This document shows positions 320 to 40,282 of a stretch of 52,690 nucleotides of DNA, piece after piece. The notes beneath the pieces were generated by a model that made no database searches, had not been told where the DNA came from, and worked only from the letters and a program-made list of their open reading frames with translations. The DNA is from Neolecta irregularis DAH-3 (Eukaryota): the NCBI GenBank assembly GCA_001929475.1, contig LXFE01000205.1:1-52690 (forward strand), written 5' to 3'. Position 1 is the first letter of the stretch. Each line of letters begins with the position of its first letter. Both the position numbers and the translations under genes were made by a program.

Positions 320-1213
320 ATGATATTTCATCTAGACTGCTCCGCTATAAAAACACCACCCCTCTCTACCTCGATCCTCTCAATCATCATCGTACTCGGT
401 GTAATACTCTCGTATATCCCCCAGGTACGAAATCCTTGCACCTCTCTCACAAATAGCATTACAGAATCATATTAAAGAAATCGTCAGAAGGGATTTCTCC
501 CTGGTTTCTGCTTCTCGGCATTACTTCCACATCCGACGCTCTCATAAACATTCTCATCCTCCAATATCCCATTTTAAAATGCTGCCAAGAATTGGTATTC
601 TTTCACATCTAATTATTTGACTGTTAGGGTCCTGGAAAATGTTTTATCGCCACACTTGGAATCGCTCAGATTGCAATGGGGTTCTTGATGTTTACAATCA
701 TGTATCCTTTTCATTCCTCACAACCCTAATTTATAGTGTCGTCTTGGTTACCGTTTACCCGGCCCATGAACAAGCGACTCTTGTATCATTAATCTCACTC
801 GTTCATTTCATCGTTCTCATTATTCTGTCATTGTTTCTCCAAAACAGAACCGGATTTGCAAATGTAATCGGTATTATATCCGCTGTACTCGCTGTATGTC
901 AATACGTGCCTCAAATCATGACTACATACAAGAGGAAAAATATCGGGAGTCTCAGTATTCCAATGATGCTCCTTCAAACACCAGGGAGTTTTATCTTCGT
1001 CTTGAGTTTGCTGGGAAGGGAAGGAGTAATATGGAGCACTTGGGCAATGTACTTGGGCAAGGTTCACCCCGTTTATATAGCTAACAAATAGTCACCGGTC
1101 TACTCCAGGGCATATTGTTGATTATTTGTCTGAAATTCGAATGGAGAGGGAGAGTTGACGCTGCTGAACGAGAACCTTTGCTTACATCGGAGCAGAGAGC
1201 TGACGTTGAATAA
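320..1213 (+). CDS. PQ-loop repeat membrane transporter (5 exons)
   Basis: Spliced SYIPQ|HYRIILKKSSEGISPWF and QYVPQIMTTYKRKNIGSLS PQ-loop motifs; introns 425-456, 595-627, 702-736 and 1057-1091 (GC-AG); C-terminal EREPLL dileucine motif. Confidence 0.9.
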
Positions 1214-1242
1214 TTTACTTTCTAATATTTCCATATTTAATA

Positions 1243-1875
1243 CTAGAAAAATAAAGCCAATGCAAGACTGGAAATAGCAGTTAGTCCAAGCACAGCATAG
1301 CCAGTAGCATAGACACCCTTTAGAGAAAGACCTAGATGTCAGCCTGCAAAACCGAGCACAAAACCTCGTCCTGTATCCCAAAGCAAATGCCGCATGCCAT
1401 TGAAACTGTGAAACGTAAAGGGCAAAGCAGCCAGCATCTTTAGCGAAACCTTCTCCCATCCAGGAAGAGAACTAAAAGCAGCCACGAGAGAAGAAGTATC
1501 GAGACTCCAGCCAAATATGGGCGAAAAGAGATAGGCAGAGGCAAACAGATAAAGGCCTGCAAGTCAGAAAGGGCATAGCAACTACATATGCCTCCCGAAG
1601 CAATTGTACCAGTAATTCTGTTGGCCGCAGACATATACCAGGTGAGCTGCGGCTGATAAATCGTCAAATGCGGCGACGTGGGTCGTCTCTTTCGTTGGTC
1701 TTCTAGAATCTTGTTCGCCTCACTGGCGGCAAGTGCCTGCGATGTTACCCTTCTACATCATCGTTCAGCCCCAGAAAATCATATAATAGTACCTCGCAGG
1801 AACAGCAGTAGCAGATCTAAGCAGACCTACTCTACATGTCGCGACAATCGGGTAAAAGACAGTACGCAAAGTCAT
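1243..1875 (-). CDS. SDH3: Succinate dehydrogenase cytochrome b560 subunit (SDHC), 4 exons
   Basis: [30 protein letters not shown] and [10 protein letters not shown] motifs; N-terminal mitochondrial presequence; intron 1557-1591 is GC-AG. Confidence 0.93.
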
Positions 1876-2133
1876 TGATAGTCCTGTCAAAATGAAAGCA
1901 CAGTTGGTGTTGCCCAATCCATCCAAATTAGTGGCCTTTATTTTTTCGCGGTGCTTATAAAACCGGGTTTTTCACTTCAGAGTCTCTGAATTTCATCGGC
2001 AGGTCAAAATTTCCTTTGTCGCTCCCATTTGCGGCAGGGACATGCACTTGCCGAAGAGCGATTCTATCCGAATTAATCACCCTCCATAATTTGCCATTTA
2101 TCATTGGGTTTCATGCCTCGGTAATATCTATAT

Positions 2134-2742
2134 CTATTCTTGCTTGCTGTCTCGATATCCCATTTTTCTTTGCAATTTTGAAAATAGGGGATTGTCGTTT
2201 TTTTTTGCTTTGTTTACTTTGCGCGGGTTCAGGCACATTGACCGACCTCCAACCAGCCCCCATCCTATCTTCCACTTCCCACTCATCCTAATCTTAATAT
2301 CCTCGCAATCATGTCTCATGACTTTGCCTCTTATCTCCAAAACACACCCTCCACCGCATACAAATGGGCTCGCGATAATACCACAAATCATACAAATCAC
2401 CATGATATTACCGATACTATTGACAACTCTGCATTCATCCGAGGTGGCTCTCAATGTACCATTCAAACCTGACTTGTAGACGAAATCAACTCTAGCCGCA
2501 TGGACAGGGTTAATAGATTAGCTCAAATACTCGATGATATGCAATCGCGCACCCCAGCAACGAAAAGTCCAACCTCGGACAGTGCTCTTCTCGCTCGAGA
2601 CGACAAGGTATTCTACTACTTTATCTAGTTTGATCAAAGTCTGAGCGTTCTTCTTGCACCCTATTGCCTCACCGCGCAAACTCGGTCCCGGTTGACAGTC
2701 ATCACTCGAGGCAGGTTCCATTGAGGTAAACCATCTCGACAT
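2134..2742 (-). CDS. Hypothetical protein (start and exon structure uncertain)
   Basis: Two same-frame ORFs (2518-2880, 2134-2466) joined by a 39-nt GT-AG intron 2492-2530 that removes the stop; no family recognised. Confidence 0.45.
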
Positions 2743-2856
2743 TGCATAAATGCTAATGATAGTCATTCGTCTCCTATCAACCACCAGTCCTTGCAATGGA
2801 AAGATATATCTTCGTCGCCTCCAGTGTCGTTGGTTATAAAGAATGATCGTTCGTAC

Positions 2857-4777
2857 ATGGAACCCCCAATTCATGAGCAATCATCAAGCATAACTGCACC
2901 AACTACTCCTTCCATATCATACCACGATCGAGAAAAGACTCGATCGTCGTTTCAACAGCCAAATATCTCGATTCTTACAAACCAAGCGACGATTGCTCCT
3001 ACCCAACGAGCTAGTCCTAGCGCGAGTTCGAATGGTCTAAGCTGGACCAGCGATTTGATAAAGGAGCATCTGGCAGAACTCTTACGAACAACCGAGTCTG
3101 ACGAGGAATATCAAAGTTTACCAACAAAAAGTCCTACACCGAAAATGACTATTGAGGAATTTACTAAAATTCCTGAACCAGAGCAAATGGATTCAAAGGC
3201 TTTTCAAAAGACAAGACATTCTGCTGGCAGATCTTTTGATAGAAACGTTTCTTCCGAGTCGCAGTATATAGCAAACTTCGAGGCTATGTCGCAGTCACTG
3301 TCTTTTATCAATTCTCCTGAAGCACCAGTTGCGCAGAAATACGAGAGACCACTTATCGATATTGATGTAGACGAATATTCTGGGCACACCAGTTACTGTG
3401 TGGAACCGGTACTTTCTAATACCCAAACGTCGGCCCAAAAGCACGATAAAAAGTTCGTTACGCCATCTCGACACAAGCTGGTGCATGAGCAAACGTTCTA
3501 TTCGAAGGCAAATGCTACCCAAGGGTTTGTATCGCCCGTGAGCGTTCTCTCCCTGCCTTCTGACCATGATCACCATGAATCACTGGATCGACTCACACCT
3601 CGCAAAGATCCGCGCGATGAAGAGTTACTTTTAATGACCTCTACGCTTGCACAATTGTCGAGAGAGTGTGAAAGACGTGGAAAGCTTATTGATGAACTAG
3701 TTGACGATGTAAAGCAACTGAGCAGTAGTCCTCCTCGTAGAGACGAGAAGCTTGAGAACGAACTAGCTGATGCGCGACGAGAAATTAAGGCACTTAAAAT
3801 CTTGACTAGAGAGCTCACGGAACATGCTTCAAGTCCTCATCCGCCGGTGGCCGAGTCTCTGCCTAGTCGAGAAAAGTTGCGACCTCTTGATGCCCAAACT
3901 CCAGCTCGCTTCAACGAAACTGAAACTGTTGAAGAAAAGATGGGTCGTTGGGAAACGTACCTCGAGACTCCTGTTTTCAAGTATCAATTCTATAATGTGG
4001 ATTCTGACTTGAAGGACCAAGAAAACTATGCAAATGAAGGAGAACGAACCAATTCAACAGACGGTACGCCAAGAATTACCTCGCGTCCAAGAATTACCTC
4101 GCGTCCAACAAGAATCACAACGTTTTACAAATCTTCATAAACCTCATCAGGCACAACATAAAATGGAAACAGATATCGAGCGAGTTCGACGTTTAGCAAA
4201 TCTTCATATATCTCTACATGAAACTCCAAATAAAATGGAGAATGATATTGAACGGCTCAAGCGGGCGTTACGACAGGCTCAAGAAGAGATCGATGTTTTG
4301 AGAAGCTCGGGTGGTCATGCACAACATGCAAAAGCTCTCACACCTCAAACGATGCCTGGTACTATTATATATGTGCAAAGCTGATAGTAGATTCAAAAGA
4401 TCAGGGTGTTCCGCGGGAGGAAAAGATGTACTATCGGTTACAATTGTACAAGATTGACCGGCTATGTTCGAATGAAACAGCCAATTTGTTGAAGGCATTT
4501 CATATTTTTGAGGGGGTACTTACTTTAGAATATTTTGATCCAGATGGATATACCGCTGGACATGCTACCTCAACGGGTGATGGATTCACGAGAGCAGTAC
4601 AATGAGAATAAGCTGCTGAAACGGTTCGCAGAGGACATTCATGGGATATTGTATGATGGGGAGAAGATGAAGGGGGTGGATAAGAAATGCCTTGGAGAGA
4701 TGGTAGGACGGCTAGGCAAGCTGGTGAAGGGTGTAGAGAAGCGGCGGTACCAGTCGCGGAGGAGTGTGGTTGTTTAA
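2857..4777 (+). CDS. Ser/Thr-rich coiled-coil protein, possibly spindle-pole-body associated (4 exons)
   Basis: Long ORF with heptad segments (LENELADARREIKALK; DIERLKRALRQAQEEID); introns near 3957, near 4359 and 4495-4528 (GC-AG) give a continuous frame; internal 18-bp tandem repeat at ~4069-4108. Confidence 0.7.
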
Positions 4778-4828
4778 CTTTTGAAACGGTTTTGATAGTT
4801 TGTACAATATGAATAGTTGGGCATAGTC

Positions 4829-5386
4829 TTATGAGGGCAGAATTCTTTCAAGGCAGAACGACTGGGCTTTTGCAGCGCCTTTTGAAAGAGCGATGCCTCC
4901 AATGATTGCTTCTACGCATTCACTTGCAACTTGAGCCTTTGCAGATTTGTGAAGGTCGGCCTGGGGGTTAGCGGGGGAGGGATGGCAGGGGCACAGCACG
5001 AAGGCGGGCTTCCAGCGCATGATGGCTGATACGTTGTGTTGCAGGGCAAAGTTATGGATGGCATCTGAGGAGGTTTTTGCGGTGACAGGGTTCTCTACGG
5101 ACTCGAGGCCGGCAGTCTGTAGTGTTTTTGAGAGGGATACGAACTTGATGGTACGGCGTCCTTGGGTAAGAGACAGAACAGGAAGGAGAGCGGCACCGAG
5201 GAAGGCGAGCTTGTCGTTGTAGGGGAGGGAGCCGTGTGAGTAGGACTTGTGGGTGACGCACTGCCAGACGAGAGAGGGCAGCAGGTAGGAATCTGGGGGG
5301 GCGCCGAGGAGTGCGAGGTAGAAGCGGTGCAGCAGGCGGGAGTCTGTGTTTACGGCAAAGGGGGTGGAGCGTGGGCGCAGGGACAT
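4829..5386 (-). CDS. MRPL15: Mitochondrial ribosomal protein mL57 (RNase III-like fold)
   Basis: WQCVTHKSYSHGSLPYNDKLAFLG, MRWKP and VEAIIGGIALSKG motifs; two in-frame introns (36 and 39 nt). Confidence 0.88.
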   Translation of the reverse strand: MSLRPRSTPFAVNTDSRLLHRFYLALLGAPPDSYLLPSLVWQCVTHKSYSHGSLPYNDKLAFLGAALLPVLSLTQGRRTIKFVSLSKTLQTAGLESVENPVTAKTSSDAIHNFALQHNVSAIMRWKPAFVLCPCHPSPANPQADLHKSAKAQVASECVEAIIGGIALSKGAAKAQSFCLERILPS

Positions 5387-5459
5387 GAGAGGGTGGAGGA
5401 GGTACGGGTGCGCACGTGCACAATGCGCATATATGCCATGGGCGCTGCATACAGCGGCA

Positions 5460-5803
5460 ATGCTGCTGCTGCTGCTGCTATATACCGCCGCTGCCTCTGC
5501 GCAGTTCGCCTTCTTCGACCAGATGTTCCAGCGCCCGCAGGCGATTATCTACAACGCCGACACCTACAGGGCCCAGTATGCCGCGGGTACTCAGCCCCTG
5601 GGGTTCTGCTAACGGCAGGCGAATGCAATGGCTATGTCTGCCCCGACACCCTCACCTGCGTCGACCTGCCCGCCAGCTGCCCCTGCCGCTTCCCGCAGGA
5701 GACAAAGTGTCTGGTTGGCAGCTCCTACTTCTGCATCTCGGCTGTCGAGACGGGCAACGCATGCGACTTTGTCCGCGCAGTAGCAAAGGGCCGCTCCCTC
5801 TGA
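5460..5803 (+). CDS. LCL2: Long chronological lifespan protein 2 (secreted/ER, Cys-rich)
   Basis: Signal peptide, then QFAFFDQMF, then CNGYVCPDTLTCVDLPASCPC; intron 5587-5618. Confidence 0.9.
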
Positions 5804-5848
5804 CCTCTGTATATATATATCCCTTAATCCTTGTTCCATGCATATATA

Positions 5849-6876
5849 CTAACCCTTTTGCCCTCCCTGCAGCCACTCGTACACCACCCCAAAGTCCTTG
5901 CCCCTGCGGCTCTCCGCCACCTCCGCATACACCCCCTGCGCCGCGTCCTTCAGGCCCAGCCACACCCCGCGCTCCTTCGCCGCCTCGCATGCCAGCTTCA
6001 GGTCCTTCTCCATCAGCTCCACGGCAAACCCCCCGTGGTATCCCCGCTCCACCGGCGCATCTCGCGTCACGCCCAACACAGGGTTGTTGGCCTCAGACGC
6101 CCAGCACCTCCCAGTACTCGAATTGATGATCTCTCCCAGCACCTTGGCCTCCAGCCCCAGCTCCAGCCCCAGATTCATCGCCTCGCATGTTGCAATGTTG
6201 GATATCGCAAGCAGGTAATTATTGCTCAGCTTCGCCGCTAGTCCAAGCGTGGGCGAGCCACACGCTATGATACGCTTCCCCATAAAAATAAGCGCCTGGC
6301 TCACATCCGCAAGCTGAGTCGACTCTTTTGATAGCCCTACCATAAACGTGAGCGTCCCGTTCTGAGCCCCAATAACCCCGCCCTGCATCAATGTTGGCCC
6401 GCATCATACAATATCATACCGACACAGGAGCATCAACAAACATTGCATTGTGATGTGTAATCTTTCTCGCCAGCTCGCCAGACGTCTTGATGTCAATCGT
6501 GCTGCAATCTCTAGTGAGACACAGGTCTATCAGGTGCAAATACCGATATAAATCTGCTTTCCCCGCGGTGTGATTTGCTGAAAGAGCGTCTTCATGGTTG
6601 TTCCATCCGGGAGCATCGTTATTATTGTATCCTTGGATCAACTTCTCTTCTCTAAAACCCCTTTACTGCTTCATCTACAACCTCTTGGGCCGTCTTGGCA
6701 ATATCCACTCCCGTGGGCGGTTTCACATCATACATTATAACCTTTTCTCCCGATCGTTGCAAATTCCGAGCCATCGGTAACCCCTCTCGTCAATAACTGT
6801 TACGCACCATACCTTACCATTCTACCAAGACCAATAAAGCCATAATGCAAACTTCGCCGAAATACAATTGATGGCA
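5849..6876 (-). CDS. HIBADH: 3-hydroxyisobutyrate dehydrogenase (5 exons)
   Basis: GFIGLGRM|GLPMARNL Rossmann motif, DCSTID, FVDAPVS|GGV, KLSNNYLLA, SSTGRCWAS, GGFAVELMEKDL. Confidence 0.92.
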
Positions 6877-7004
6877 TCCGTAACTTTTGATGTAGGTTGT
6901 AAAATCTTAAATGTGGGGGAACCAAGACACCTACTATTCAAACTTTAATTTGATCTGCAAAGCCAATATTCCGTAACATCTCCAACTCCACAAACGTAAT
7001 GCAT

Positions 7005-7542
7005 TTAGAATAATCTGCCAACCCCATGACAAGTCGGACAAGTTGTCTCCAACAAGAATAAACTCAACATACGCCCACTCCCTTTACATGTTCCACACAA
7101 CATGCCGCCAAGCCGCTGGTCTCCTGGCGGTAGCACTAGAGCCCCTTCGCATTAATATAATTTCAACTCAAGATATACCGGGTGGAGGCCCGTAATTTGC
7201 GGTCAAAACTGGTCGATTTTGCCTGCCAAATAAAGAATGACATGTCCCGCAAGGTCTCCCAGTTGATTTAATCCCTGTATTCGAACATTTTGAACACCAA
7301 TAATTTGGTGGAAATTGCAAAGGACCAGCCCGAGGGTACTGCGGCTGAGGGTGTTGCTGGTGATGTTCTTGCCAGTAAGACGGTGACTGGTGTTGTTGTG
7401 GATATTCTTGCCAGCAAGGTTGTTCAACCGGCCGGTTTTGAGTCGGATGCGAAGGGCCCTGTTGACTATTGAGATAGTGAGAACCTTCCGAGTACGGAGG
7501 TGGAAGATCGTTGTCGAGTTGATGTTCTGTCTTCTTGCACAT
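7005..7542 (-). CDS. HUA1: Proline-rich zinc-finger protein of the HUA1 family
   Basis: PPPY motif; YWCSKCSNTG..GRPCGTC; LPPGDQRLGGMLCGTCKGSG..TCPTCHGVGR; one intron. Confidence 0.85.
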
Positions 7543-7787
7543 TGTGGTTCAAGAATTACACACATGTTTGCCAAACTTGATTTGATTGGTCGGGATTACA
7601 CCACGACGAGCCCACCATGTTCGCCCACGATTACATTTCCCGAATATTTATGGTCCTCGTCATCCGATCAACCAGTCTATTTGGCCGGATTTCTACTATT
7701 CTCGGTCGGGGCGAAACGATGACGATACACCTTACAAATTGTGGGATTTAAACCGTGGCTTCATTTGACTTTTTTGTATTCCTCATA

Positions 7788-9401
7788 ATGCAAAGACCGT
7801 CTTCCGCGAGCTCAAGTGATTCTTCCGCCTTTATCGATGCCCTCTCAATAATGGAGTATCCCGGGCCCGTACCTTATGAGACTCTAAGTAGTCCAATGGA
7901 CTCCACAGACAGCCACAACCACGAGGACGAACATGTCGATATCTTTCACAATACAATCATGGGCGAGAACGAAGGAGAGTACGGTTTATCTCTTTTTTTC
8001 GAAAATCTCATAGTTCCAGGATTCCCATTCGGCTGCCACATATTTCTCTCCGTACATCTAAATCGAGCGTAGATTACCCGACTCCCTTTCTGCGGCACAT
8101 TCGTATGATCCCAAGAACGCCTTCTCCCATAATGGAAATCCCCATTGATTCACAACGGTTGGAAAAATTAGCTCGTGTTCTTTTTCCAGGTCTTTACTTG
8201 AAACGAGACAAGGAACAATTCCGGAAAGATTGGCTCGACCTCATGGACTGTTGTGAGTCGAATGTTCGTAGGTCGTTCAGCAAGGGCGTGGGGATGAATG
8301 TAAATGATTTTGTTGATGAAGTTCGACGAATGGTGGGAGGTCTTTTACAGGGTTTTTTAATTCTGTTAGATGAGATATGGCTTGATGGATCTTCATCGGA
8401 CCCTGGTATCATTTATTCACAACCGGCGCTTTGACACGGATCTCCGAACATATCATGAAGAACACGACCCTCCCGCTCTGCGGAATCTGGGCTCACCCAT
8501 CGAATCAACGTACCCGGCTCTCCGGTGGATGAAAGAGATGTTTGGCAAGCTACTTGACATACATGGCTATGCTCCATTGGGAAGTTCAGAGGAACTGACA
8601 TTTTTAATGATTTTACGAAACCAAGTCCAGGCATTCAGTGGGATGGTCCAGTACGGTACACAACTACGAACAAATTCACAAACAGTTCGAAGACTCTCTG
8701 TTAACCCCTTTTCTCCACACTTCTTTCACCGGAACAAAACGGACAAGTCGTCCAAAAATGATCAAGCCACATCTACATCCGGAGACCTTGAAATACAAGC
8801 CTCTCAGTCCGCCGAAAACGATGAAGCGAAACTACGATTCATTGATAAATTCGGTTTACCAGCCCTCAAAAATCATCCGTGTCTGGAATTCAATTTTTCC
8901 CCAGATATTAGTCTCGGACGACACTTGAACCTTTCATCTCGCAAGCACCGGTCAAATACCACTCTCGAGCTATATACAGGTACAAGTCCAATATGGCGAC
9001 TATACCTCGTTCATTCATCGCCACTTCACGCATACGATCAAATCATTGGCCAAATCTGCCAAATCTCATATAGTTACCTGTGGACCTTACAAATCCTCTT
9101 TCCCACTGACGAATCTCAAAAATGGGCTGTTTCACAAGGAATCTGTAAATCGTACCTCGATGCCTCACGTCTTTACCCACCTGAATCCACAAGCTGTTCT
9201 CTCTTCGTCAATAGAATGCAGCGATTAGAAAATATCGGGTACAATCAATGGGCCAGACTCCGTCTTGAATTAAAACGAGCTAGTCTGGAACAGCCTTTAC
9301 ACTATTGGTTTTTTTGGCTTTTGGTGCTATTCATCGTAGTTGGGATTCTCTGTCTTTTATTTCTAGTTTCGCTATTTTCAGTGATTGTTGCGAGACTTTG
9401 A
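7788..9401 (+). CDS. Uncharacterised fungal protein with a C-terminal transmembrane helix (3 exons)
   Basis: Three ORF segments joined in frame by two short GT-AG introns (near 7980 and 8333); C-terminal hydrophobic helix YWFFWLLVLFIVVGILCLLF. Confidence 0.7.
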
Positions 9402-10065
9402 GGAGGAGTATCAAGTCATCCTAGAATTCATCCGGTATTTTTATTTTAGCGATGACCTTGTATGGGCACTACAAAAACTGTAATTTAAAATTCAATTAAG
9501 AATATACACGGATTCGAGAAAGTAGGGCAAACTATTCATTTGTAATAGCAAGCTTATTTAAAAGTTCCTTATTATTTAAATGTCCAAACAAGTAATTAGT
9601 GGGGAAGCTAATTATCGGAAATTGAATCAGGACCACGCAGCACGCAGCACACAGGAACAAAACCAATCCACGACAACCTTCATTAGAATATACTCTTCAA
9701 ATGCACCCATTTCAAATTTCTTCGTTATGAGCGATCAAAGCCCCTCAGTTTATAAATCTTAAAGCGACGTTCAACCCAGCCATCTGTGTGGATAAAAACA
9801 AACTCCGTGACTGTACACCATTATCCAATATCAGTAAACCCAATTCGGTGGCCTCAGGCAACAGACTAATGAATGTATCATTCCAAGTTCTCCTTGATTG
9901 CCATCGGGGGCTTGGACCTTAGACCCCATGAAGCGATTTCTACCGGAAGCGGTAAGTTAGGGTTTTGTTATCAATTCAGCCGGGCGAGCCCCTCTCTCAA
10001 GCCATTCCCTTTCTTTGCTAGGATCCAGCAATTGTTATTGTCGCTACACACATTATACCGTTACT

Positions 10066-11817: not shown

Positions 11818-12553
11818 ATGAAATCCACGAGTTAGGATATTTACTTTTTAGCCTTAATAATGGAATGGAAATTTTGAATGTCCCATATATTCCATATAGT
11901 GCTCGTCTTGGTGATAAATCTGGTCGTCTGGTACTGATAAAGATCGCTTGCTTTATAGTCACAAACCAGATGCATCATTATTTGGTGACACGGGCGCTCA
12001 ACATTCCTTTGTTCATGTTTATACCTTGACTGGGTGACTTTTCGTGATATAGAAATTGCTCAAAAGCATCTCAAAGCTCATTCAGATCCGCTGATCTCAG
12101 CTAAAATCGAGAACCTGGGTTTATCGTTTGCGGGTACCTATCCTCTGCCATTTACAAGCATAGTCCTAAACATTGCCGCAGCAACTCTTGCCTCGGTACT
12201 CTTAACCTTGTCATTCTAGATTTTTTCCTCTTCCAGGAGTTGGGTTCACCAGTATATATCTTATATCATGTCGGGCAGGACTTTTCCCTCGACTTGGTAG
12301 AATTAATCAGGATGAGCAATCCTCATTTAACCATTCGTGGATCAGTCCGGGTCTAATAAAGCAGGTAGAGAGCTTTGCTGCTATAACAGCAAAAGAACGT
12401 AAAAATCTTGGAGAGTGAACAGAAAAAAGAGAGAAGGAAAAAAGGATGTAAATCACTTTCAATCTTGCCTCTCTCTGCCATACTTAGTTTGAGGTTTCCT
12501 GTAAGTACATCTTGCACTGTTCATAGTTTCTAGCGATTTCTCCAACCACCAGA

Positions 12554-13888: not shown

Positions 13889-14010
13889 TAAAAATTATAC
13901 ATAGTTTTTCTTTCTATTTCTGTGGGGCCTATTCCACTTCGTTCGTCATCTGATATGTATTTTCCTGAGACACCACTTCAGGAATGTTGGTTTTGTGAAG
14001 TACCTCGTTG

Positions 14011-14991
14011 ATGTATCCTCTGCCTCCGTTGGCGTCTCCACATTCATTAAGCGGAATCGCTGGAAGCATAAGCATCGCTTGGTTTTCGTCTTGATATTCA
14101 GAGAATTAACTTAGTAGCTGGGTTGTTGTTTTCAGCCCGCAGATCATTGAAAATTACAAAAGAAGATCTGGAGACGGACTTTCGCTCGCTTTCCTCTGGA
14201 TTTGGCTTCTCGGTGATGTATTCAATGTGGCAGGTGCACTGTTCCAGGGGATCATGCCAACCATGGTATCACAACTTCTAATGCAAATGTTTTATAATGC
14301 CAGACGATCCTGGCGTTCTACTATACTCTCGCGGATGTCGTGCTCATTTTACAAGTCCATTATTACAGAAAATATGGAAATAAACTCGAATCTTTCCCCG
14401 AGCATCTGAGCGAAACTGAACCTTTGATCCCGTCAGTGTCCACCGAAGTACCCATATTTGAAATGAAACAAAAGCGAGCTCTTATTCGAAACAGTATACC
14501 AGACAAATTATCAAGCTCATAGAGATAGTCGCATACAATACGACTATTCTATTTGCCGTATGGCTAGCTGGGTTCTTTGCTTGGATTTTGCTTACCTTCG
14601 TTTTGCCTCGGTCAGGGAATTTTTGTGAAGGTGCATCTCTATCTATCCCAGGCAAACACGCTAAGCCATTATGTTCAAATGCTTATGACTAGGCCAAATT
14701 TCAGGCTGGATCTCTGCAATGCTTTATATCGGTTCGCGATTACCTCAAATCTTCAAAAATCATCGGAAAAGGTCGTGCGAGGGACTTAGCTTATTGTTTT
14801 TCATGTTTAGTGTCTCGGGGAATACGACATATGTTGCGAGCATCTTGCTGCAACATGCTTCTCGTTCGTGGCTGGCATTAAACGCGAGTTGGATTGCGGG
14901 GAGTACAGTGACACTTTTTCTTGACTTTGCAGTATTTTGTCAATTTTGGAGATACGGGACCATGTCTACAACGGCAACATATGTTGATTAA
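14011..14991 (+). CDS. Vacuolar PQ-loop basic amino-acid transporter (Ypq/PQLC2 family)
   Basis: GSISIACWVVVFSPQIIENYKRRSGDGLS and LYIGSRLPQIFKNHRKRSCEGLS; 4 introns. Confidence 0.9.
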
Positions 14992-15893: not shown

Positions 15894-15966
15894 CGATTTG
15901 CATTTGGGAAACAATACAAAAACCGGAAGCTCGCCGTATTGGATGTCAACTTACATTACGTCAGAC

Positions 15967-19078: not shown

Positions 19079-22015
19079 ATGGGCGCAGTAGATTCAAAGT
19101 AATCCATGTTGACTTGTTCAGCGGATTGCTAACACATAGACTTTCTTTCCGAAAAGGCGTCTTCAGGCTGTTCGAAGAGCGTGACATTCCGGCGGATGAT
19201 TCGTATTGGATCCAATTCTGGAGTCTCCCCGAATCGGAAAATGAGATATACGAGTTATTTGGGCCTCAAGATGTTAGAAGAACTCGCGAGCAAGCGCCAG
19301 AGAACTTGGAAACGTTAATAATGGCGCTCACATCCCGATTATTTGCTTTACGAAATCACCCATCTTTTCCAAATGCAGAAGTCGCCCCTGCAAGAGAAGC
19401 TTTGAACTGTATTCGAGTGCTATCGAGGCTAATGCCATTTATTTATGAAGCTGATCTGGATGAATGGGAGGCTCGCTTTTGGTGGGCGAAGAGAAGGGTG
19501 AGGCTGTACCCTCCAACACATGTGCGATCGCCAACGATCGGAATGGAGGAAAATGATGAAGTTTTATTAGGACAAGATACCGCAAACACTACAGGCCAGC
19601 AGAAAAATGTTGAAGAATTCTTTGAAACAAAGCCGCTAGCACATGAACTGGTAGATACCCTTATCGATCTCATGTTCTTTTCCGGTTTCACCCTCCCATC
19701 CTCGTTTTCTGGGACAGATAAAGTGAATTTCATTATCTGGTAGATTTCATCGACTGAATTCATCACTCATAATTTTAGGCAAACTGGCGTAGGGTGTACC
19801 ACTCCGGTTGGTACGAGTCGAGAATACGAACAGCACAAGCTTGAGATTTTGAGCTTACTCATTGCTCTAATGTCCAAGCCAATGTATCAGAGTACTAGTA
19901 AGCTTATGATATGCCCACACGTCTTATGACAATAGAGGAAATCCCGGATCTTCAAACAAATTTTGTTTCGTACCTTGTGGGATATTCGGATCGTAAAATT
20001 GTTCTCACTCTGCTGTGCTCGCTTCTTAACACAGTATAATGGAACTTTCCCTAGTCAGCTAAAGTTATAGGTTATGAAATATAATCCAACAGGATGGAAA
20101 GTCCCATACGATCATGTCATGTTCGTCGACCTTCGGCAACAACTCGTCACTTACTGTCTGCAAGTTCTAGTCGTAATTCTTGCTTATGATCCTCCCCCGC
20201 TATCTCCTGGCGCCGATTCAATCCAATCTGAAAGGCAGAACTCCAATATCTTCCGCCATTACTACAGCAAAATCCATCGAAAGTCTGATTTCCAGTTCAT
20301 CACAGAGGGAATGAATCGAATTTTAACTCAACCTATTCAAGCAAACAACTCATATACGAGCTTTTTGCCGGGCAGTCAGGCGGAGATTCGCTTATATCCA
20401 GATATGATGATGCTTTTCTGGGAAACATTTAAATGCAACGAAGTGAGTCGTAGGTCTCTGCAGCTGCTGACCATTCACCAGCGTTTCCGCAAATATCTTA
20501 TCGACACGTCAACTGGATTGGATGTCCTTGTATTGATATTATATTACTGTCGTTCGAACAAACCAGATGCTAGCCAGCTGGGATTTGTGCGCATGTGTAT
20601 TTATATCCTACAAACCGTCACTGCTGAAAACGGATTTGCTGTCAAATTAAACCAGTTGTTTCTAGGACACGCATCATTGCCTGTGAGTGTTCGACTGCCA
20701 CATTTTCAAGGGACCTACGCTGATTTTCTTATTATTGTACCCTCTAATTCGATATTTGCTAAATTTAATAGTCAATTTACCGACTGATAGCTGGAAGCAA
20801 AGGTTCGTTGAAGCCTCTTTACCCATCAATGCTGCTAAGTATCTCCAATATCGCGCCCTATGTTACGAATATATCTAAAGAATCGTCCACCAAATTGCTA
20901 AACCTAGTTACATCCATTTCTGCGCCTGGTTTTATCCTTGCAGAAGAAGGGAACTATCTTCTCCTCATGCACGTTCTGGATATTTTTAATCGTATTCTTG
21001 AAGCGCAATTACCTCGTACCCTTTTCGATGTGCTGTATAGTGCTAAGAAATAGAAAACCCATGGTTAGTGAGCCTCATCGTTCGCAATCACGAACGCTTC
21101 GAAGCTCTGAGAGACTTCACACTTGATGGTGCACTTCTGGAGATCGAAAAAATAAAGAATTCTCAAAACGACATAGCCACGAAAGGCGTTACTTCAAGTA
21201 TCGACTCGAAGGATACGATCGCCACTGGTATACCAGCGAACCAATTAGAACCTTCCTCTTCTGCTTTCTCTGTCGTCGATGATGACGGCGATAAATCTCT
21301 ACTGCCCCAGGAGCATTCTTCGTCGTTACCTGCATCATCATCTTTGCAATCACAAGAATCTTTGCAGGTAGTCTTGCCTGCTCATGGTAGATTTCTTTCC
21401 GAAAAGGCCAGAGGAAAATTACCTGAAGGTGCAGGACCTCGAAGCCCAGAAAGCGACGTTGTATCTCTCGCATTCAGAACTTGTAAAGCGTCTGGTACGA
21501 GTGGACCGTTCACCCCTTCTCAAGAATGGGTTCTCGTTTACGTTTTGGACTCTATTAATTTTTAAAGGTGGAATCTTGGTTACCGCGATTGCCACTTTAT
21601 ACAATTCTAACTTTGGTTGCCCAACTTGCGCCTCGTCTGAAAGATACTACTGATCCTACTTACCTGATTGCACAACTCCAAGAATTGAATGAATCGCGTG
21701 TTCACCCTACAGACACACCATCAAGTCAACCATTTGTTTGGACAGCTCAAGCCACAGGTTGGTATCAATCCATGATCTGGGGATCGATTTTTCTAGGCCA
21801 TGTCCAGCTATTCAAAGGCATTTTTATCTTACATTTAATACTACTAAATGTGATCAGGGTCGAAGATCAAATTATTTCAAATAGTTACTGCCCAGCAGGG
21901 ACCAACTTTGAGAAATCCTCGCGGGGCTGTAGATGCTGTTTTGACTAGCGTGAGTGCGAAGTTGGGAAGCTTGAGTGGTCTCGGAAATGCAGACGCTAGA
22001 AGCCCATCCAGCTAG
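19079..22015 (+). CDS. HID1: HID1/Ecm30 family Golgi protein (10 exons)
   Basis: MGAVDSK|LSFRKGVFRL N-terminus, ALNCIRVLSRLMPFIYE, IW|QTGVGCT, KIKLFQI..PRGAVDAV; last intron 21818-21857 is GC-AG. Confidence 0.92.
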
Positions 22016-22187: not shown

Positions 22188-23797
<1,610 letters not shown>

Positions 23798-28459: not shown

Positions 28460-28776
28460 ATGAGCTTCCAATTTATTACATGTAGAGTAAGTGAGTTACA
28501 TGTACGAGACATTTTCTCTGCAGTCCTGATTTTGTCTCATGGCTTGAGATTCGGAGCATGAAAGTGAAACTCACCACCAGAAAATCATCAAAGCTGAGCC
28601 CCTTCCCCCTTTTCGCAAACCGCAACCTGTATAAAATTCTACCTAAAACTCCGATATTGTAGCAAGCTGAAAATCTCGCGGTACTACCTCTCGCGTGCGC
28701 TTAAAGAGCTGTTGTATATTTGCTACTTGCGTAATTCAACTTCATCTGACGACTGACCTCGTAATATTTCTCCACC

Positions 28777-31700: not shown

Positions 31701-33587
31701 CATTTGAAACAAATAACGTGGGAACTCAAAGCGGATGCTGCATTATCAAGATATCTTACCCTCAAGGAGGTGGATGAGCTTATCCTCGACGGCTTGAGTC
31801 AAAAGATCAGCCCCACATTATGTAACCAGCTCCGTCGTCTCATTGAACGTCAAGCTCTTGGTCAAGAATGGGAGAACAAAGCGGCGTCTTTGTTGTCACA
31901 GGAAACTATATCGATCGACTTGCTCAAAATACACCTTGAACAAGCTTCGGCGAAATCAGTACATCTTGAGACCGTTGAAAAGATGAAGGATGTCATCAAG
32001 CAAGCTCGTACTGTTAGCGAAGGAGCCCGCGAAATGATCGAGCGAAGTAGAGTTCCTATTTTCGGGGATCGTCCACTTGCAGAAGAAGCCCGACAAGTAA
32101 AAGAGTCTATGGAAACGTTGCCCAGTAAACCTGTAGAAGCTGCAGAACTTGATAAATTGTATCATAAAATCGAGGATTGGATCAGAAAAGGAAAGCGGTT
32201 GTTTGGAAAGGCGAATGCAACACTTAATATCTTCAAACAGCATATGGAGTATGTGGAACATCGAAATGAGGCATGCCTTTCTATCACAGATAAGCCTCGT
32301 GCACCAATCGAGCCCTCTTCACGAGAGCATACTCCTGAGCTCAACGGTAATCCAATGAATGGTGACGGTTTCAAGGGCCCACGAGATGTATTTTGTTTCT
32401 GTCGGCAACCTGAAGCGGGATTGATGATCAACTGTGAATGCTGTCAAGAATGGTATGAGTCTCATGGTCTATTAAAAATTTAAACATAAGGTACCATAGC
32501 AGATGCCTGAAGATGTCAAGGAAACGACTTAAAGACGAAGAGCATTACACCTGCGCTGTGTGTGATTACAGAGTTACAATTCCTCGACAAGCTGACCGTC
32601 CTCGTCTCGATGACCTTCAAATTCTTCTCGAAGATGCGTATCTCCTTCCGTTTGTTCCAGAAGAACTTGCCATACTCGAAAGAGTAGTAGACAGAGCTTT
32701 GATTTTCAAAGGCGTCATTGAACCAATTCTCAATTCTCCATTTCTTACTAGTGCCGAATTGCCGATGCTTAGGTTCTATCTGAGAAAACTAGAAGGTTCA
32801 GAAGTTTTGTTCCTTGAAGAAACGAATTTCCTTCGTCGTAAGGTCCATGATTTGAATCCAATCGCACCAGCTCCACCTCCTGTAATAGGTCAGTCGAAGT
32901 CAACACGGAAGCCTCGCCCATCGAAACGACAAAAGGAACTCATGGCGGAAGGTCTTACTCTTGTTGAAGCACAAACACAAGAGCGAAGGGAGAAAGAAGC
33001 TGCTGCTGCTGCTGCACCCCCAAGATCCACACCTAAATCTCGGAGTCTCAAAAATACCGCTCCAAATTCACGAAACAGTTATCCAACACACTTAAGCAAT
33101 GACGCTGTAGGGATATGTACCTCGGCACGGAATAGCCCTGTTTCGCATACCCCACCACCACCTACTTGTATCTGTAATAGGCGGATTTCATCCAATGAAG
33201 CAGTTACATGTGCACATTGTCAGAGACGATATCATGTCGAATGTATTTGTGGAGCAGATTCAGTTGGTCCAAACCAACTTCTTCCTACTTATCTATGGTA
33301 TCAAATTTTAATTTGGTCATGTTAACATGAGCAGTCCCCATTGTAGTAAAGAATCCCAACAGTCTGCATATTCACACTATCCCGAATCATCGCAGCCTCT
33401 GGACATCCAGCCAGCTCAATCTGCCAATATATTTGAGCAGTATGCCTCGGGAGCTACTCTAGATAGTAACGCTTTTGCTGTAGTTGGAAGTACAGAAAGA
33501 AACCTAGTTAATGCTTTGGGAGGATATGCACATTCTAGTATGACGGATCAGGATGACAAATTTGTGGAGTCATTTCTTAATAATTAG
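28777..33587 (+). CDS. lid2: KDM5/JARID1 H3K4 demethylase (JmjN-ARID-PHD-JmjC-C5HC2-PLU1-PHD-PHD)
   Basis: EAPTFYPTKEEF, VEYGADIHST, FCWHNEDH, FPKAYHAGFNQG, three PHD fingers; 7 introns. Confidence 0.95.
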
Positions 33588-33753
33588 GCACTGTTACCTG
33601 TTATATTTGTGGTTGTTCGCTGTCCTGTTTTACTTTTGTGTACATGCTCTTTTCTTAAACTCCTCTTACTTGGTGTTACTAAAGTTTCAAGTCTTTCTGT
33701 TTGTTGAAAAGAAATACCAAACACATTCCGAAATTTGACTTTTAGTGAGATGC

Positions 33754-35870
33754 TTAGACATTCAAAAGTCTCCACAAGGCATGACGATCTGGATACTCAT
33801 GAGAAATTAAACACACAAGCCATCTTGTTTCCATTACTTTGTCGATCAAATTTGCAGTGGGCGACTTTGGAGGATATAACTGTCTCCAGAGGCCAAATGT
33901 TGCGAATGCTTCATCCTACTTCTTAAGCACATGCTAAACGTGGATCTTATCTATCTAACCTTCCACGCCTTGAACGCGATTTCTTCGACAATTGTTGGCT
34001 GAACTATCTCCTTCCCAGGAAATACACCCCACACAACAGCATTGGAGGCCGACTCACTTGTGTTTGTAAGAAACTCACCCTGGCGTAAATTCAAGGAGAA
34101 TATCCGATTCATACTGTGTTGTTTCCTGCATAGAATGAGAACAGCTCACTGTCCTTTATTCGTGCATGAAAAGCGTGCCAATCTTTCTGGTCTATGAAGA
34201 ACTCCACGAAAGCCTTGCTTTTGTTAATTACTGGGAGATAGATATTGTTTATGCTTTTTGGTATACCCATCCACCACATGGGCCCCATCCAAAAATTGGA
34301 TCATCACTGGGTACGCCAGAGATTGCAGGTTGACTACTTAGAGTCCACCAACCTCTTTCATTTAACCGCAGAAGATGGTCTCTGATTGTACTAGTCTCCG
34401 GGTTGAGTTCCAGCTCTGACCATGGGATCGCAGAAATATCCTGTCTCAAGTAGGAGCAAAAAACATTTGATATATCATTCACAGTGGCCGGGTGACCCCA
34501 AAATTGTAGCGCTTGTTGTGAGGGGATATGTAAAGAAACTCCGTATCCATCAATTTCTCCGAAAGCTAGAGGACTTAACTTTGCTTATTGCCAAAAACAT
34601 ACCAGGTGATCGAGCATCACCAAATCGCCCGTTAGTATACTCGTCCCATGTAGCTTGCCTACCCATTGCTCCTTCGCCTTCAGAGACCGATAATGCAACA
34701 GAAGCTGGCGTTTCAATGTCGGCGAGAGTTGCTGCATCAGTTGTAGAAGTGACCAAATCGATGTTGTGCAGACCTTGACAGATCTCTTCTACAATTATGC
34801 GGGTATGAGGGTTGGAAATCAATGAAGTGGTACGTCGTGAGTTCTTCGAAATATTTGATGTTGTGAATGCGGAATCGTCGATAGCAAAACTTGATCTTTC
34901 CCTATATTTCTGTACTGATTCAAGAAGCCCACTCTTTTCTATTACAAATGCAACGTTTCTTTCTAGATTTAATGTGCAGAAATGAAAGCCTCGACATCGA
35001 CCTTTGGTTTGAGTTTGAATGGCCTGAATCATACTGACTGCAACTTCTACGCCCATCTCCTTTATAGTTTGATCGTCTCTTTTCACTGATTCTAGTTTCT
35101 TCAACAAGGATGGGGGAACTTCTGCGTGAGTCAGCTTTGTGAGTCGTCGGAATGATTGATAAGATTGGATTGGCATAATAGCAGGAATGATGGGTATCAA
35201 TTCAAACAATCCAGACTCATGTTCCCTTAACACCTTTTCGTAATCGATGAATTTTTGTGTATCATAGAATAGTTGAGTAATGATCAAATCTGCGCCAGCG
35301 CGAACTTTCTCGATAAGATAGGGAAGATCGATCTTGGGATCTTGATATCTGGGTGATGAACCCTCTGAATGTCCTTCAGGATACCCTGCAACGGCAATAC
35401 AGAACCAGTCGTCGTATTTGCGCCGAATATGTCGGACTAAATCGATGGCGTACTGATATTCGGTAGGAGAATCTGCCCAATATTCGGTTGTGCGAGGGGG
35501 GTCTCCACGAAGCGCTAGAATATTCCTGATACCAGCAGCTTTGGCTTTCTCGAGTGTATCGTCTAGGACGATTTGATTCATGTTGGTACAAGTGAGATGG
35601 AGCATTGTTGTGAGTCCATATTCATTCTGACATGCTGCTGCAAGTTCAAAAGTCGACTGCGCGGTACTTCCTCCTGCTCCCCAAGTCACACTTACGAAAA
35701 GGGGATTAAAGCGGGACATTCGTGATATTCGAGAATGAAGATTCGCCATCCCCTACAAATCAGGTGTGATGTTGGTAATATATCGTGCATACGGCATCGG
35801 TTTTTGGAGGAAAAAACTCATAAGAATAGAACGGCCCCTGCCATTCGTTTAACGCCTTCGTGAGTTTCAT
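33754..35870 (-). CDS. MET12: Methylenetetrahydrofolate reductase (Met12-type)
   Basis: [62 protein letters not shown]; 5 introns, 34214-34254 is GC-AG. Confidence 0.93.
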
Positions 35871-36502
35871 ATGGGGGAGAGGGGTCACAAGTAACAAGCC
35901 AAATGACGTCCTCACAAAGAAGACAAGTTGATAATGGATTTGGAATAAACTACTTCATAACTACATACCGGACAACCTACACAATCGATCAGTACAAGGC
36001 TAAGAGAAGATGTATTGAGAAAATCTATATTGTAGCTCAGAAGTAAATGCCCGTGGGAGAGTCGACATGATCAACTTCAAATAATGGTTGACTGAGTTTA
36101 CCAGATGTTTTTGCCAGTCATCACAGCCTATCCGGAATAATCAAACCCCACATACCTGGAGAAAAAAGTCCATTTCAACGGTGCAAATGTATGGAATCAT
36201 AGGTCATCACCAGCCATGGGCAGTGCACAATTGCGCCGCGCGACGAAGCAATGGTTTTAAGCTCCAACAATCGATCGATATTTCGATTTCAGTATGTGCC
36301 CTGGATATCTGCTAGAAATGTCGGTTCATGTCGAACCGTATCAAGACGTGACACCGAGATATTGGGCAAGATATTTTCCCGGAAGGCGCACGGCCTCGCC
36401 TTTTATAGACTTTTTCCCCAACCACCAAAATTCTTCTAACCTTTCACTTTTGAAATTACACAAACTATCCTGCCATTTTGCCTATGGACTGATAAAATCA
36501 CA

Positions 36503-37286
36503 ATGTCGATTTCTACTAGTATGTCAAAGCTTGTACAGTTACAGCGTCCACTGTCTCATTCACCAAACTCTTCATTATCCATCATTGAAAGTTCTCACGG
36601 GCGCACCATCCACTACGATTCAACAGCATCCATTGTATCCAGTAATTACAAACAGACTTCTCTAAGGAATCAATGGATATTGTGGTTCGTTCGATTTGTT
36701 GGGTGAACCATGTTGACATAGTCAGGTACTTGCATAGATCACCTGGACAAAAGATACACAATTACGAAAAGGCAACACGGAAAATCGCCTCTTTTTCTTC
36801 AGTAAAGATTATACTGGTATTTCTGTGCTTATTTTCGAGGTAGAAGAATTTTGGGCAGTCTTCGTTCATTTACAACGTCCTTCCTCACTGCCAAATATCT
36901 CCGACATTCATATCTTCAAATCAGGGATTCAGCCTATGTGGGAGGATCCTATAAATATTGACGGAGGAAAGTGGATCCTTCGCTTGCGCAAGGGAATTGC
37001 AAACAGATACTGGGAAGAAATCGCCATGGCACTAGTTGGAGATCAGTTCGGCGAGGAGGTCTGCGGAGCTGTTCTTAGTGTGCGGAACCTCGAAGACGTG
37101 ATTAGCATCTGGGTGAAGAGCACGATCCGGGGAAATATCAAGGTCAAAGGCATACTAAAAATGGTGGTAGACTGTCCCTCAGATACTATCATAGACTTCA
37201 AAAGCCACAGAGAAGCGATGAATCAGCAGAAACACAATCATCACCATTACCAACAGCTGCAGGCTAGGAGAGAAGAGTCGATGTAA
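36503..37286 (+). CDS. EIF4E2: eIF4E class II (4EHP/eIF4E2) cap-binding protein
   Basis: LRNQWILW|Y, NYEK (Tyr at the Trp56-equivalent position), S|VEEFW, PMWEDP.N..GGKWILRLRKG, CGAVLSVR. Confidence 0.88.
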
Positions 37287-37340
37287 AGGGTATATTAAGA
37301 TGACAGAAGATGTACCATTTGTAACGAATGTTCAAATCTA

Positions 37341-38096
37341 CTATAATGTTCTTAGCGGGCTGCTTTGCGCATTGGTGATGGACTCGAGAACAATTTTCAT
37401 AATCGCCTCTTGAACATCCTCCAGACTTTCAGATGCATCAAGGACTCGCCAGTCGTCTTTTTCTTTGGGAATTTCTTTTAGTTTGTTGAAGACATGTCTA
37501 ACACAGTGTTGCATCTCCTTTTCTTCATATCGTTCTTTGCCGTATCCAGCTCGAGTGCACGCGACTTCTTCAGAAATATCCAGAAATATCACGGCGTCTG
37601 GGCGAGGAAGCCCGACATCGGGATTTCTACACCAACTGAAATCCAAACCCTTGTTGTGAGTTGGGCAGGACAAGCAGTGCTTGCCTTCGCACATGTAAAC
37701 GCAACTCCAGAATAGACATATCGATCTACGATGACAGTAATCCCTTCGTGTATGTCTCGCAAAAGACTCTCTCTAAGCGATTAGTTTTGACAGGACCAGG
37801 CTGATTGGGCAAACCTCGCTTCCCATCTATTTGCCGAAAACAGCAAGTGGATAGCCTGGTCATCTAAATCTGATTGATTCTTTAAGTATGAGTCAATCAT
37901 TTTGCCAATTGGAGTTTCTCTGTCCAGCTTTCTTAGTCTATATATTCAATGATGTTTTACCTGGGAACTTCCGAAGCTTTGATGCTATGCCCGTTTGTTG
38001 AAGTTTCGTCATAAGCATAGCACATTGGGATGACTTCCCAGAACGATCAAGGCCTTCTATGGCAATAAACGCCCCGCGCCTATTTGTACTTGTCAT
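37341..38096 (-). CDS. CDC8: Thymidylate kinase (4 exons; an in-frame upstream ATG at 38126 is possible)
   Basis: [64 protein letters not shown]. Confidence 0.95.
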
Positions 38097-38165
38097 AGTT
38101 TTCTCGATTCGTTTCTGGTGTTCCATGGGAGTCCCCACTTCGTCCCCTCAACTTCCCCATCCTAA

Positions 38166-39545
38166 ATGGCCGACCAAGCAACCGCTATTCAGCAATTTGT
38201 AGAGATCACAGGGGCCTCTGAAGCTCAGGCAAGGTTTTTTCTCTCAGCCTCGAAATGGGACATGAATGTACATTCTTCAGCAATCATATTGAATGTAACA
38301 CAGTCCAAAGCTTGCAGTAACTAGTTTCTTTCAAAAAGATTCGGCAGAAACAAGCGAAGGTCCTGAAGAGCCTGCTCAGTCGACATCAGTTTCGGTTCCT
38401 GCCCAAAGATTACAACGTATTCCGTATCTATCAACAGCTACCTAAATCAATTCTAACTTAGGAGTCAGCGTGGAAATATCGCAACCCTTGGTTCGATAGG
38501 AGATCCGATGGACGAGGATAGCGATTCGGAGACTGATAATCCAGAGTACTTCGCCGGTGGAGAGAAATCGTACATCTAACCAGTCCCATTTCATTTGGTG
38601 ACCGAACTTAGTGGACTATCCCTCCAGGATCCAAAAAAGAAACGAGACAACACCATTCAAGATATCCTCAGAAAGGCAGCACAAGCTCCTGAACTATCGG
38701 AGAACGATAATGATCTTCAAACCAATCACTTTGCCGGAACAGGTATCGGTTGTTTTTTAAACTAATTGACATAAAGGACACACATTAGGCGGCGAAGACA
38801 AAGAATCTACTGTAGTCAATCCCCAGAACGAGCGGCCATCTCGACATCCTAAGGTTACTCGAATCCTGAATTTTTGGAAAGATGGAATAAGTGTAGATGA
38901 TGGACCGCTGTTGAGATATGATGATCCTGCGAACGAAAGCATTCTGAATGATATTAACTCTGGGTACGAGGTTCCATAATCTAGCATGTTGATTGTGACA
39001 GGCGGGCCCCAATGGCTTTGTTGGGCGTTGAATATGGCCAGCCAGTTGACGTCAACATCAATAAACAGTTGGATCAAGAGTTCAAAGCTCTGAAAAAGCT
39101 GAATACTTGGGAAGGATCTGGGTACAGGCTAGGAAGGTACTCTAGGTATACGGTTCAGGACTCTTATTCCTTTAGTCAAATACCGGATGAACCTGCTCCT
39201 GCAGCATCCTTCCCTTCCGCACCAGCACCTGTAGAACATCTTCCCTTCGGACTTGAGCTCACGGATGGCCAACCTGTAACATCTGTCCAAATCCGTCTTT
39301 CAGATGGCACACGCATTGTTTCAAGAGTGAATTTATCCCATACAGTGGGGGACCTCTACAAGATCATCAACATGTTCGTACACGCCACCGTGAACAATTC
39401 TAAGAACACTAGGAGTCGACCAGATATGGCACCTCAAAATTTTGTCTTGCAGTCGTCATTTCCAATGAGGGAACTCAATGATAGATCGCAGTCAATTCAG
39501 GACGCTAAATTGCAAAATGCTGTTGTAGTTCAAAAGATGACTTAA
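38166..39545 (+). CDS. SHP1: Cdc48 adaptor Shp1/p47 (UBA-SEP-UBX), 8 exons
   Basis: QFVEITGA UBA-like domain, FAGGEKS|G, FWKDGISVDDGPL SEP domain, GSGYRLG SHP box, VQIRLSDGTR..FP UBX domain. Confidence 0.93.
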
Positions 39546-39591
39546 ATATATATACAAAAATCCATACTATACAATTGGAAGAAGAGGCGTC

Positions 39592-40282
39592 TTATCTAAA
39601 AAGCCTGCTGTGAACGCGGCTCTGTGGAACTGTATTGGTCTCTTCCTTATGCAAGCGATATGCTTCACGCAGATGCTCAGGAGTCAACGCACCTCTGTGA
39701 CCTCGAGAATTGCGTATTTCGAGAGCTGAAAATATCAGATTAGGTCTAAAACGAATCGCAGATGCCTTTCTCAACAATTTCACCAACGAAGACTTTCCCA
39801 AATCCGGCTACTACAATAGGGATATTTGCTGTGACGTTTTGTGCAAGCATTTGGTTGACGACCTGAAGAATCAGTCAGTAAAGGGTGATAATACATTGTC
39901 CCACCTTTTTCACGGCGGTCTTATTGAGATTTCCTCTTCGAAAGGCTTCATATCGACTCATCTGCTCCGTCGTGAATTTATTCATGAGCATGGCCATCTG
40001 CGCTGACTCCTCTTCTTTACTCGTTCCCTCGAGAACCTGGGAAATTTGAGTGGCGCCCCAATCTTCATCTTCAATTTCCTCATCTGACTCTTGGTGAGCA
40101 GCTGGAGTCTGTGCTTCATTTTGCAAGAAGGGTGATTCAATATATTGAGGAGTGTCTGCAAGAGGGGTCTTTGGAGTCCTTGCTGCATCTTGCAGTAGAT
40201 TCTGTTGGGATTTACGTCTTTTACGGAGAATCTGGGAATTTGCTGGTGGAGAAGCAGCGCTGGAAGGAGAACTTGCAGTCAT
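39592..40282 (-). CDS. TAF11: TFIID subunit TAF11 (histone fold)
   Basis: FTTEQMSRYEAFRR, KVFVGEIVEK|ALEI, GALTPEHLREAYRL; second intron 39726-39765 is GC-AG. Confidence 0.92.

Follow-up and report, generated by a model that had tools for sequence, protein, structure and literature searches.

Contig LXFE01000205.1 of the fungus Neolecta irregularis DAH-3 was analysed as one window, that is, over its whole length of 52,690 bp, and all counts given here refer to this contig and draw on protein homology. Nine unrelated genes of the window, distributed across 39 kb, each contain an intron that appears to start with GC in place of GT and to end with AG. An earlier note on this DNA had named these nine intervals together with their donor hexamers and AG ends, and we located all of them on the contig. 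They are listed below, followed by a possible tenth that we did not count.

1057-1091, plus strand: GC-AG intron of 35 nt, donor GCAAGG, phase 1, in a gene for a PQ-loop membrane protein
1557-1591, minus strand: probable GC-AG intron of 35 nt, donor GCATAT, phase 1, in SDH3
4495-4528, plus strand: GC-AG intron of 34 nt, donor GCATTT, phase 0, near the 3' end of a poorly conserved gene of the 700-aa class
14652-14692, plus strand: probable GC-AG intron of 41 nt, donor GCAAAC, phase 1, before the second PQ-loop in a gene for a Ypq-type transporter
21818-21857, plus strand: GC-AG intron of 40 nt, donor GCATTT, phase 1, in HID1/ftp105
22371-22409, minus strand: GC-AG intron of 39 nt, donor GCATGC, phase 0, after an exon ending in CTC, in RBBP4/Mis16
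34214-34254, minus strand: GC-AG intron of 41 nt, donor GCATAA, phase 0, after an exon ending in AAA, in MTHFR
37650-37684, minus strand: GC-AG intron of 35 nt, donor GCAAGC, phase 0, in the thymidylate kinase gene
39726-39765, minus strand: GC-AG intron of 40 nt, donor GCATCT, phase 1, in TAF11 (TAFII28)
23692-23736, minus strand: possible tenth GC-AG intron of 45 nt, donor GCAAGA, chosen by a gene finder (see below), in the unconserved 5' part of the RBBP4 gene

Apart from the donor dinucleotide, the nine resemble their neighbors. They are 34 to 41 nt long (the GT introns have a median of 39 nt), each has a CTRAY-like branch motif 6 to 10 nt from its 3' end, and their combined branch and acceptor score is 7.79 bits, compared with 7.82 for GT introns. 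We also looked for the U12-type donor, /RTATCCTT (the slash marks the splice junction), and found TATCCTT at the start of none of the nine. Reading through is impossible in every case: eight of the lengths are not multiples of 3, and the 39-nt intron at 22371 has an in-frame TAA. Removal of each interval in one splice phase connects two open frames, both with recognisable protein sequence. In-frame GT alternatives score 4 to 12 bits below the GC introns on the species' own intron model.

Could the GC donors nevertheless be an artefact, either of wrong gene models that overlook nearby GT donors or an unspliced reading, or of an assembly with C for a genomic T? The homologues argue against this at seven of the nine introns, where other junctions break residue-exact or gap-free collinearity. 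The assertion that most of the GC junctions are needed to restore conserved protein was thus borne out, with seven of nine fixed by homology. Five junctions are residue-exact or gap-free (1057, 4495, 22371, 34214 and 39726) and two have no workable alternative (21818 and 37650). At the remaining two, 1557 and 14652, the GC intron is probable.

The RBBP4/Mis16 junction at 22371 is exact on both sides. Its upstream exon aligns to the last residue with Schizosaccharomyces pombe Mis16 219-374 and human RBBP4 221-366, and its downstream exon aligns from the first residue with Mis16 375-418 and RBBP4 367-418. In MTHFR, the upstream exon ends in VYQK at residue 460 of 8uy2_A, the last exon starts at 494, and the middle exon of 33 codons corresponds exactly to 461-493; the best GT alternative at 34214 loses VYQK. 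The exon downstream of 34214, searched alone against PDB, gave no true match. In TAF11, measured on the Pfam TAFII28 domain, the exon upstream of 39726 ends at position 61, the split codon is position 62 and the downstream exon resumes at 63. Splicing at 1057 yields WSTWAMYL/VTGLLQGILLII, which aligns without gaps with 12 homologues that keep V-T-G-x-L-Q-G, while the best GT alternatives turn VTGLLQ into GK or GKVHP.

The intron at 4495 lies in a gene whose 405-aa exon found one homologue, P0077, in a search of the whole library. The spliced C terminus aligns with P0077 over 114 aa at 49% identity (E value, 5e-35), across SNETANLLK/NILIQ; the unspliced reading aligns over only 31 aa. Were this intron retained, translation could continue for about 37 further codons before the stop at 4605, giving a different, unconserved C terminus (4495-4605, plus strand); a retention isoform is therefore a possibility.

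For HID1, homologues retain GWYESLLWGFIF upstream of 21818 and IRLFRV..PRGAVDAV downstream of it, and 21818-21857 is the sole intron that unites both frames without deleting at least 8 residues. The upstream exon of the thymidylate kinase (TMPK) gene ends in GVAFTCAK, at residue 112 of the human and 106 of the yeast enzyme. The exon downstream of 37650 starts at human residue 114 and yeast residue 110, in a loop of variable length, and all in-frame GT alternatives lose at least 7 conserved residues.

The artefact explanation has more purchase at the last two introns. In-frame GT alternatives had been pointed out for both SDH3 (1557) and 14652; they are present and plausible, with the GC introns favored by 5 to 9 bits before any penalty for GC. 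By the spacing of the Pfam Sdh_cyt domain, the GC model of 1557 is 1 residue short, a 29-nt GT model is 1 residue long and a 53-nt GT model is 7 residues short. On the intron model, GC scored 16.3 bits versus 7.6 and 11.2 for these alternatives, again before the penalty. When the SDH3 exons were compared with PDB, they matched different chains and the junction at 1557 was not bridged. At 14652, the frame and the Pfam PQ-loop positions are compatible with the GC intron. The alternative is a 62-nt GT intron, 14631-14692, which deletes ASLSIPG from the loop before the second PQ-loop. This loop is variable among homologues, and homology therefore does not decide the case; the intron model gave 13.1 bits to GC and 6.2 to GT, before the GC penalty.

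To count GC donors against a background, we used a self-training gene finder that combines codon log-odds, matrices for donor, branch and acceptor, and an intron length distribution, with a Viterbi path for each strand and a strict intron prior. Trained with GT donors only, it returned 86 introns. As a control we re-ran it 15 times, allowing GT plus one other donor dinucleotide each time at a fixed penalty, with the matrices for the other positions unchanged. With a penalty of -3 bits, the finder chose GC for 8 introns, for a gain of 28.2 bits in total score; each of the other 14 dinucleotides yielded 0 to 5 introns and no gain above 7.9 bits. With -5 bits, there were 6 GC introns and 0 to 2 for any other dinucleotide. 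Several of the control hits were the same GC introns shifted by 3 nt (for example, 22371-22412, 22371-22415, 39726-39769 and 37650-37687), and hence the true background of the control is lower still. We conclude that GC is used as a donor beyond chance, since none of the 14 other non-GT dinucleotides matched it under the same settings.

The finder recovered six of the nine introns. The other three, 1057, 4495 and 14652, escaped it because they lie where it had terminated a gene model or had built none. It also proposed two further GC introns. One is the possible tenth intron, 23692-23736, which scored 12.2 bits versus at most 7.2 for GT alternatives and belongs to an N-terminal exon without homology. 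The other, 48487-48527 (plus strand, GCGTAC, 41 nt), was rejected, as the GT-AG intron 48489-48523 (GTACCT, 35 nt) is equally good once GC is penalised. Either of these two introns would link the same two long open frames, of 255 and 195 codons.

This last tie is a point in favor of the artefact explanation, as are the GT alternatives at 1557 and 14652 and the deposited annotation, which ignores the HID1 GC intron. In addition to the homologue collinearity at seven junctions, however, base-calling is a poor explanation: nine T-to-C errors, all at +2, are not credible in an assembly whose coverage is given as 199-fold (PMC5309816). We consider an artefact very improbable.

The size of the excess depends on the GT set. 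From the finder's output we dropped one GT intron, 21758-21796, as a false positive, because the residues that it removes are kept in homologues; 82 GT introns remained. Three more (425-456, 595-627 and 702-736) came from the PQ-loop gene that the finder had missed, by tblastn with a related protein, P0025. The census of the contig is therefore 85 GT and 9 GC introns, or 9.6% GC; with the seven firm GC introns only, it is 7/92, or 7.6%. The average for GC-AG introns in fungi is listed as 1.009% over 130 annotated species (PMC7072748, Table 1), and the share on this contig is about 10 times that norm. The excess that had been asserted for this contig, now 9/94 versus 1.009%, is real.

Might the introns be real and the contig an outlier, with GC-AG introns at an ordinary 1 to 2% genome-wide? 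The window covers 52.7 kb of a 14.5-Mb genome, and it was chosen because it had been flagged, which leaves room for a local fluctuation or a selection effect. Against this, the probability of at least nine GC introns among 96 is 6e-7 at a rate of 1.009% and 1.4e-4 at 2%, and that of at least seven among 94, for the firm set, is 5e-5 and 2.9e-3, respectively. The location of the nine introns in nine unrelated genes across 39 kb also speaks against a fluctuation. We regard this alternative as improbable.

What, then, do the donors themselves look like? In the 85 GT donors, the information content is 0.55 bits at -1, 0.78 at +3, 0.18 at +4, 0.04 at +5 and 0.09 at +6. The most frequent tetranucleotides at the intron start are GTAT (27 introns) and GTAC (21 introns). 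The introns of Neolecta have a sharp CTRAY branch motif 6 to 10 nt from the AG and a narrow length distribution, mostly 31 to 47 nt. It had been proposed that this lineage recognises weak 5' sites with little U1/U6 pairing. The low information past GTA agrees with that proposal, but it is a trait of all introns: little pairing potential beyond G/GTA holds as a property of every intron class here and is not specific to the GC introns.

The related claim that the GC introns lack any compensating consensus stood only in part. All nine begin with GCA, none is GCAAGT, and two lack a G at -1 (22371, after CTC, and 34214, after AAA), just as had been described; a G at +5 occurs in three of the nine. 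Nevertheless, the GC donors were better than GT donors at the other positions. Over seven flanking positions they matched the U1-complementary consensus 3.89 times on average versus 2.85 for GT donors (permutation P = 0.003; n = 9 GC donors), and on the species' own donor matrix they scored 3.41 versus 1.98 bits (P = 0.011; n = 9 GC donors). The gain comes from A at -2 (7/9), G at -1 (7/9), A at +3 (9/9) and T or A at +4 (9/9). The apparent compensation is modest and affects the exon positions and +3/+4 rather than +5/+6.

One explanation is that the Neolecta spliceosome is altered, through a change in the U1 5' end, the U6 ACAGA box, U1C, Luc7 or Prp8, such that +2 may be either pyrimidine and pairing at +4 to +6 is dispensable. 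The nearly nil conservation at +4 to +6 in the 85 GT donors, which is extreme for a fungus, fits this explanation, as does the failure of base composition to account for the GC excess. Other organisms provided a further comparison. Among 80 metagenomic loci for RBBP4 homologues, 58 are intronless at the site of the Neolecta intron at 22371, and 22 have an intron offset from it by 1 nt upstream. These introns are all GT-AG, with donors of the GTAAGT, GTACGT, GTGAGT or GTATGT type; the 15 distinct ones comprise GTAAGT (6), GTACGT (3), GTGAGT (2), GTATGT (2), GTGAGC (1) and GTACGC (1). Thus, strong canonical donors are found at a near-equivalent site in other organisms. The Neolecta intron follows the Leu codon of PEL (phase 0), and the metagenomic introns (in loci among L001-L026 and L074) are in phase 2 of that codon; the offset may reflect either a 1-nt slide or an independent gain.

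Two observations weigh against an altered spliceosome. The GC donors still lean on -2, -1 and +3, as ordinary U1 pairing predicts. Moreover, the algae Aureococcus and Micromonas pusilla reach 22 to 40% GC-AG introns with a U1 5' end reported as canonical, AUACUUACCUG (PMC3033335), and an altered U1 RNA is therefore less likely to be needed in Neolecta. An Rfam scan of the 52,690-bp contig gave no matches, and hence no snRNA gene. We consider an altered spliceosome unlikely. A stronger version, in which 8 to 10% GC donors genome-wide (a record for a fungus or for a genome that is not GC rich) go together with a changed 5'-site apparatus, in the U1 snRNP proteins or the U6/Prp8 contacts, that would read only G-pyrimidine-A and ignore +4 to +6, strikes us as doubtful.

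The explanation that we favor invokes a minimal donor. Intron definition in Neolecta would rest on tiny length, on a strong CTRAY branch 6 to 10 nt from the 3' AG and on a minimal donor, (A)G/G-Y-A-(T). A T-to-C change at +2 would then be relatively cheap, because +4 to +6 add almost nothing even in GT introns, and it would persist where A at -2, G at -1, A at +3 and T or A at +4 are good. A standard spliceosome would suffice to remove the GC introns, the removal would be efficient in RNA, and the GC-AG rate of the contig would hold genome-wide. We conclude that the nine are probably genuine major-spliceosome (U2-type) GC-AG introns that make up roughly 7 to 10% of the introns of the contig, and we put the probability of this reading, minimal donor included, at roughly 0.7.

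Several points tell against this conclusion. Two of the nine introns (1557 and 14652) have workable in-frame GT alternatives. The sample is one contig of a 14.5-Mb genome, and its support consists of sequence and protein homology. The GT set is the output of a self-trained finder and contains some errors, of which 21758-21796 was removed, and the weak signal at +4 to +6 may therefore be somewhat understated. Finally, the test for compensation has an n of 9.

Ordinary U2-type GC-AG introns account for about 1% of introns. The Neolecta introns share with them the GC and AG ends, a branch site and length like those of the host's GT-AG introns, and the lack of U12-type signals. They differ in their share, which is about 10 times larger, and in an apparent compensation that is confined to -2, -1, +3 and +4. 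Burset in 2000 and Thanaraj and Clark in 2001 are said to have found a near-perfect AG/GCAAGT donor to be usual for GC-AG introns; none of the nine Neolecta introns has it.

Ciliates such as Paramecium have tiny introns with a narrow length range and a donor that is little more than GTA, features that are also those of Neolecta. Neolecta differs from these short-intron ciliates in keeping a strong, yeast-like CTRAY branch site, and we know of no report of a GC-AG excess in them.

A closer parallel is offered by lineages rich in GC-AG introns. The shares reported are 39.6% in Aureococcus, 22.2% in Micromonas pusilla and 7.7% in Chlorella (PMC3033335) and about 60% in Emiliania huxleyi (PMC4028052); in Symbiodinium, GC is about as frequent as GT, and GA donors occur as well (PMC4083563). 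Neolecta, as seen on one contig (9/94), appears to share with these lineages the shift to GC donors with a normal AG acceptor. It resembles E. huxleyi also in the errors of ab initio gene predictions that favor GT donors. The excess in the three algae (PMC3033335) and in E. huxleyi (PMC4028052) was tied to a genomic G+C content of 65 to 70%. High genomic G+C is not found in Neolecta: its genome is given as 44% G+C and 14.5 Mb (PMC5309816). The contig has 43.9% and its introns have 37.5% G+C, and therefore GC pressure is not the cause. Neolecta further differs from the GC-AG-rich algae in its share of about 9%, in being a fungus and in its introns of 35 to 40 nt. Judged by the contig sequence, it appears to be a new, fungal and low-GC member of the known GC-AG-rich lineages.

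If this is true genome-wide, Neolecta would separate tolerance of GC donors from high G+C, the sole explanation offered for GC-AG-rich genomes, and would offer, in a small fungal genome, a way to study what determines that tolerance. Our literature search found no paper joining "Neolecta" and "GC-AG". The high intron density of Neolecta has been published (PMC7940399), and the main text of the genome paper, supplements apart, has no occurrence of "intron" or "splic" (PMC5309816).

There are also consequences for annotation. At about 9% GC donors and about 4 to 5 introns in each gene, the problem could extend to a large proportion of Neolecta gene models, on which work on intron evolution and on how multicellularity arose in fungi has drawn (PMC7940399, PMC8476143, PMC5309816). 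The deposited HID1/ftp105 protein, P0001 (821 aa), ends in TAQATGWPCPAIQRHFYLTFNTTKCDQGRRSNYFK and lacks the GWYxSxxWG and IKLFQI..PRGAVDAV segments that homologues keep. Its model (21758-22015, plus strand) uses a GT intron at about 21758-21796, after which translation continues out of frame across the sequence containing the GC intron. The C terminus of P0001 is wrong because the GC intron is not used. Searches among longer proteins with the exons at 14695-14988 and 630-1055 (both plus strand) returned no record of Neolecta's own, with best identities of 54% and 79%, respectively, which weakly suggests that at the GC introns the deposited PQ-loop models are cut short or missing.

P0025, a protein of 252 aa from a public contig of 2,528 bp, is 79% identical to the PQ-loop protein (221-1213, plus strand) and shares all four of its exon junctions at the protein level. 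Public data therefore include DNA or RNA from a close relative of N. irregularis. A search for the DNA of P0025 in metagenome contigs gave 53 pattern matches, none of which was confirmed.

The same PQ-loop gene contains a 35-nt GT-AG intron (702-736, plus strand) whose start, GTATCCTTT, is a full match to the U12-type donor and which contains TTCCTCAC. A normal CTAAT branch lies in the same intron, 7 nt before its AG. About 0.3 such donors are expected by chance among some 95 introns, by a hand estimate from the donor frequencies of the contig, and minor introns are reported to be absent from Dikarya (PMC10639083). We therefore rejected a U12-type reading of 702-736; the match is probably due to chance.

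Finally, the region of about 4830-6400, in which the finder placed no gene, has a higher G+C content (48.5% over 5001-10000) and, on both strands, numerous long open frames that overlap and have a high content of Pro, Ala, Gly and Arg.

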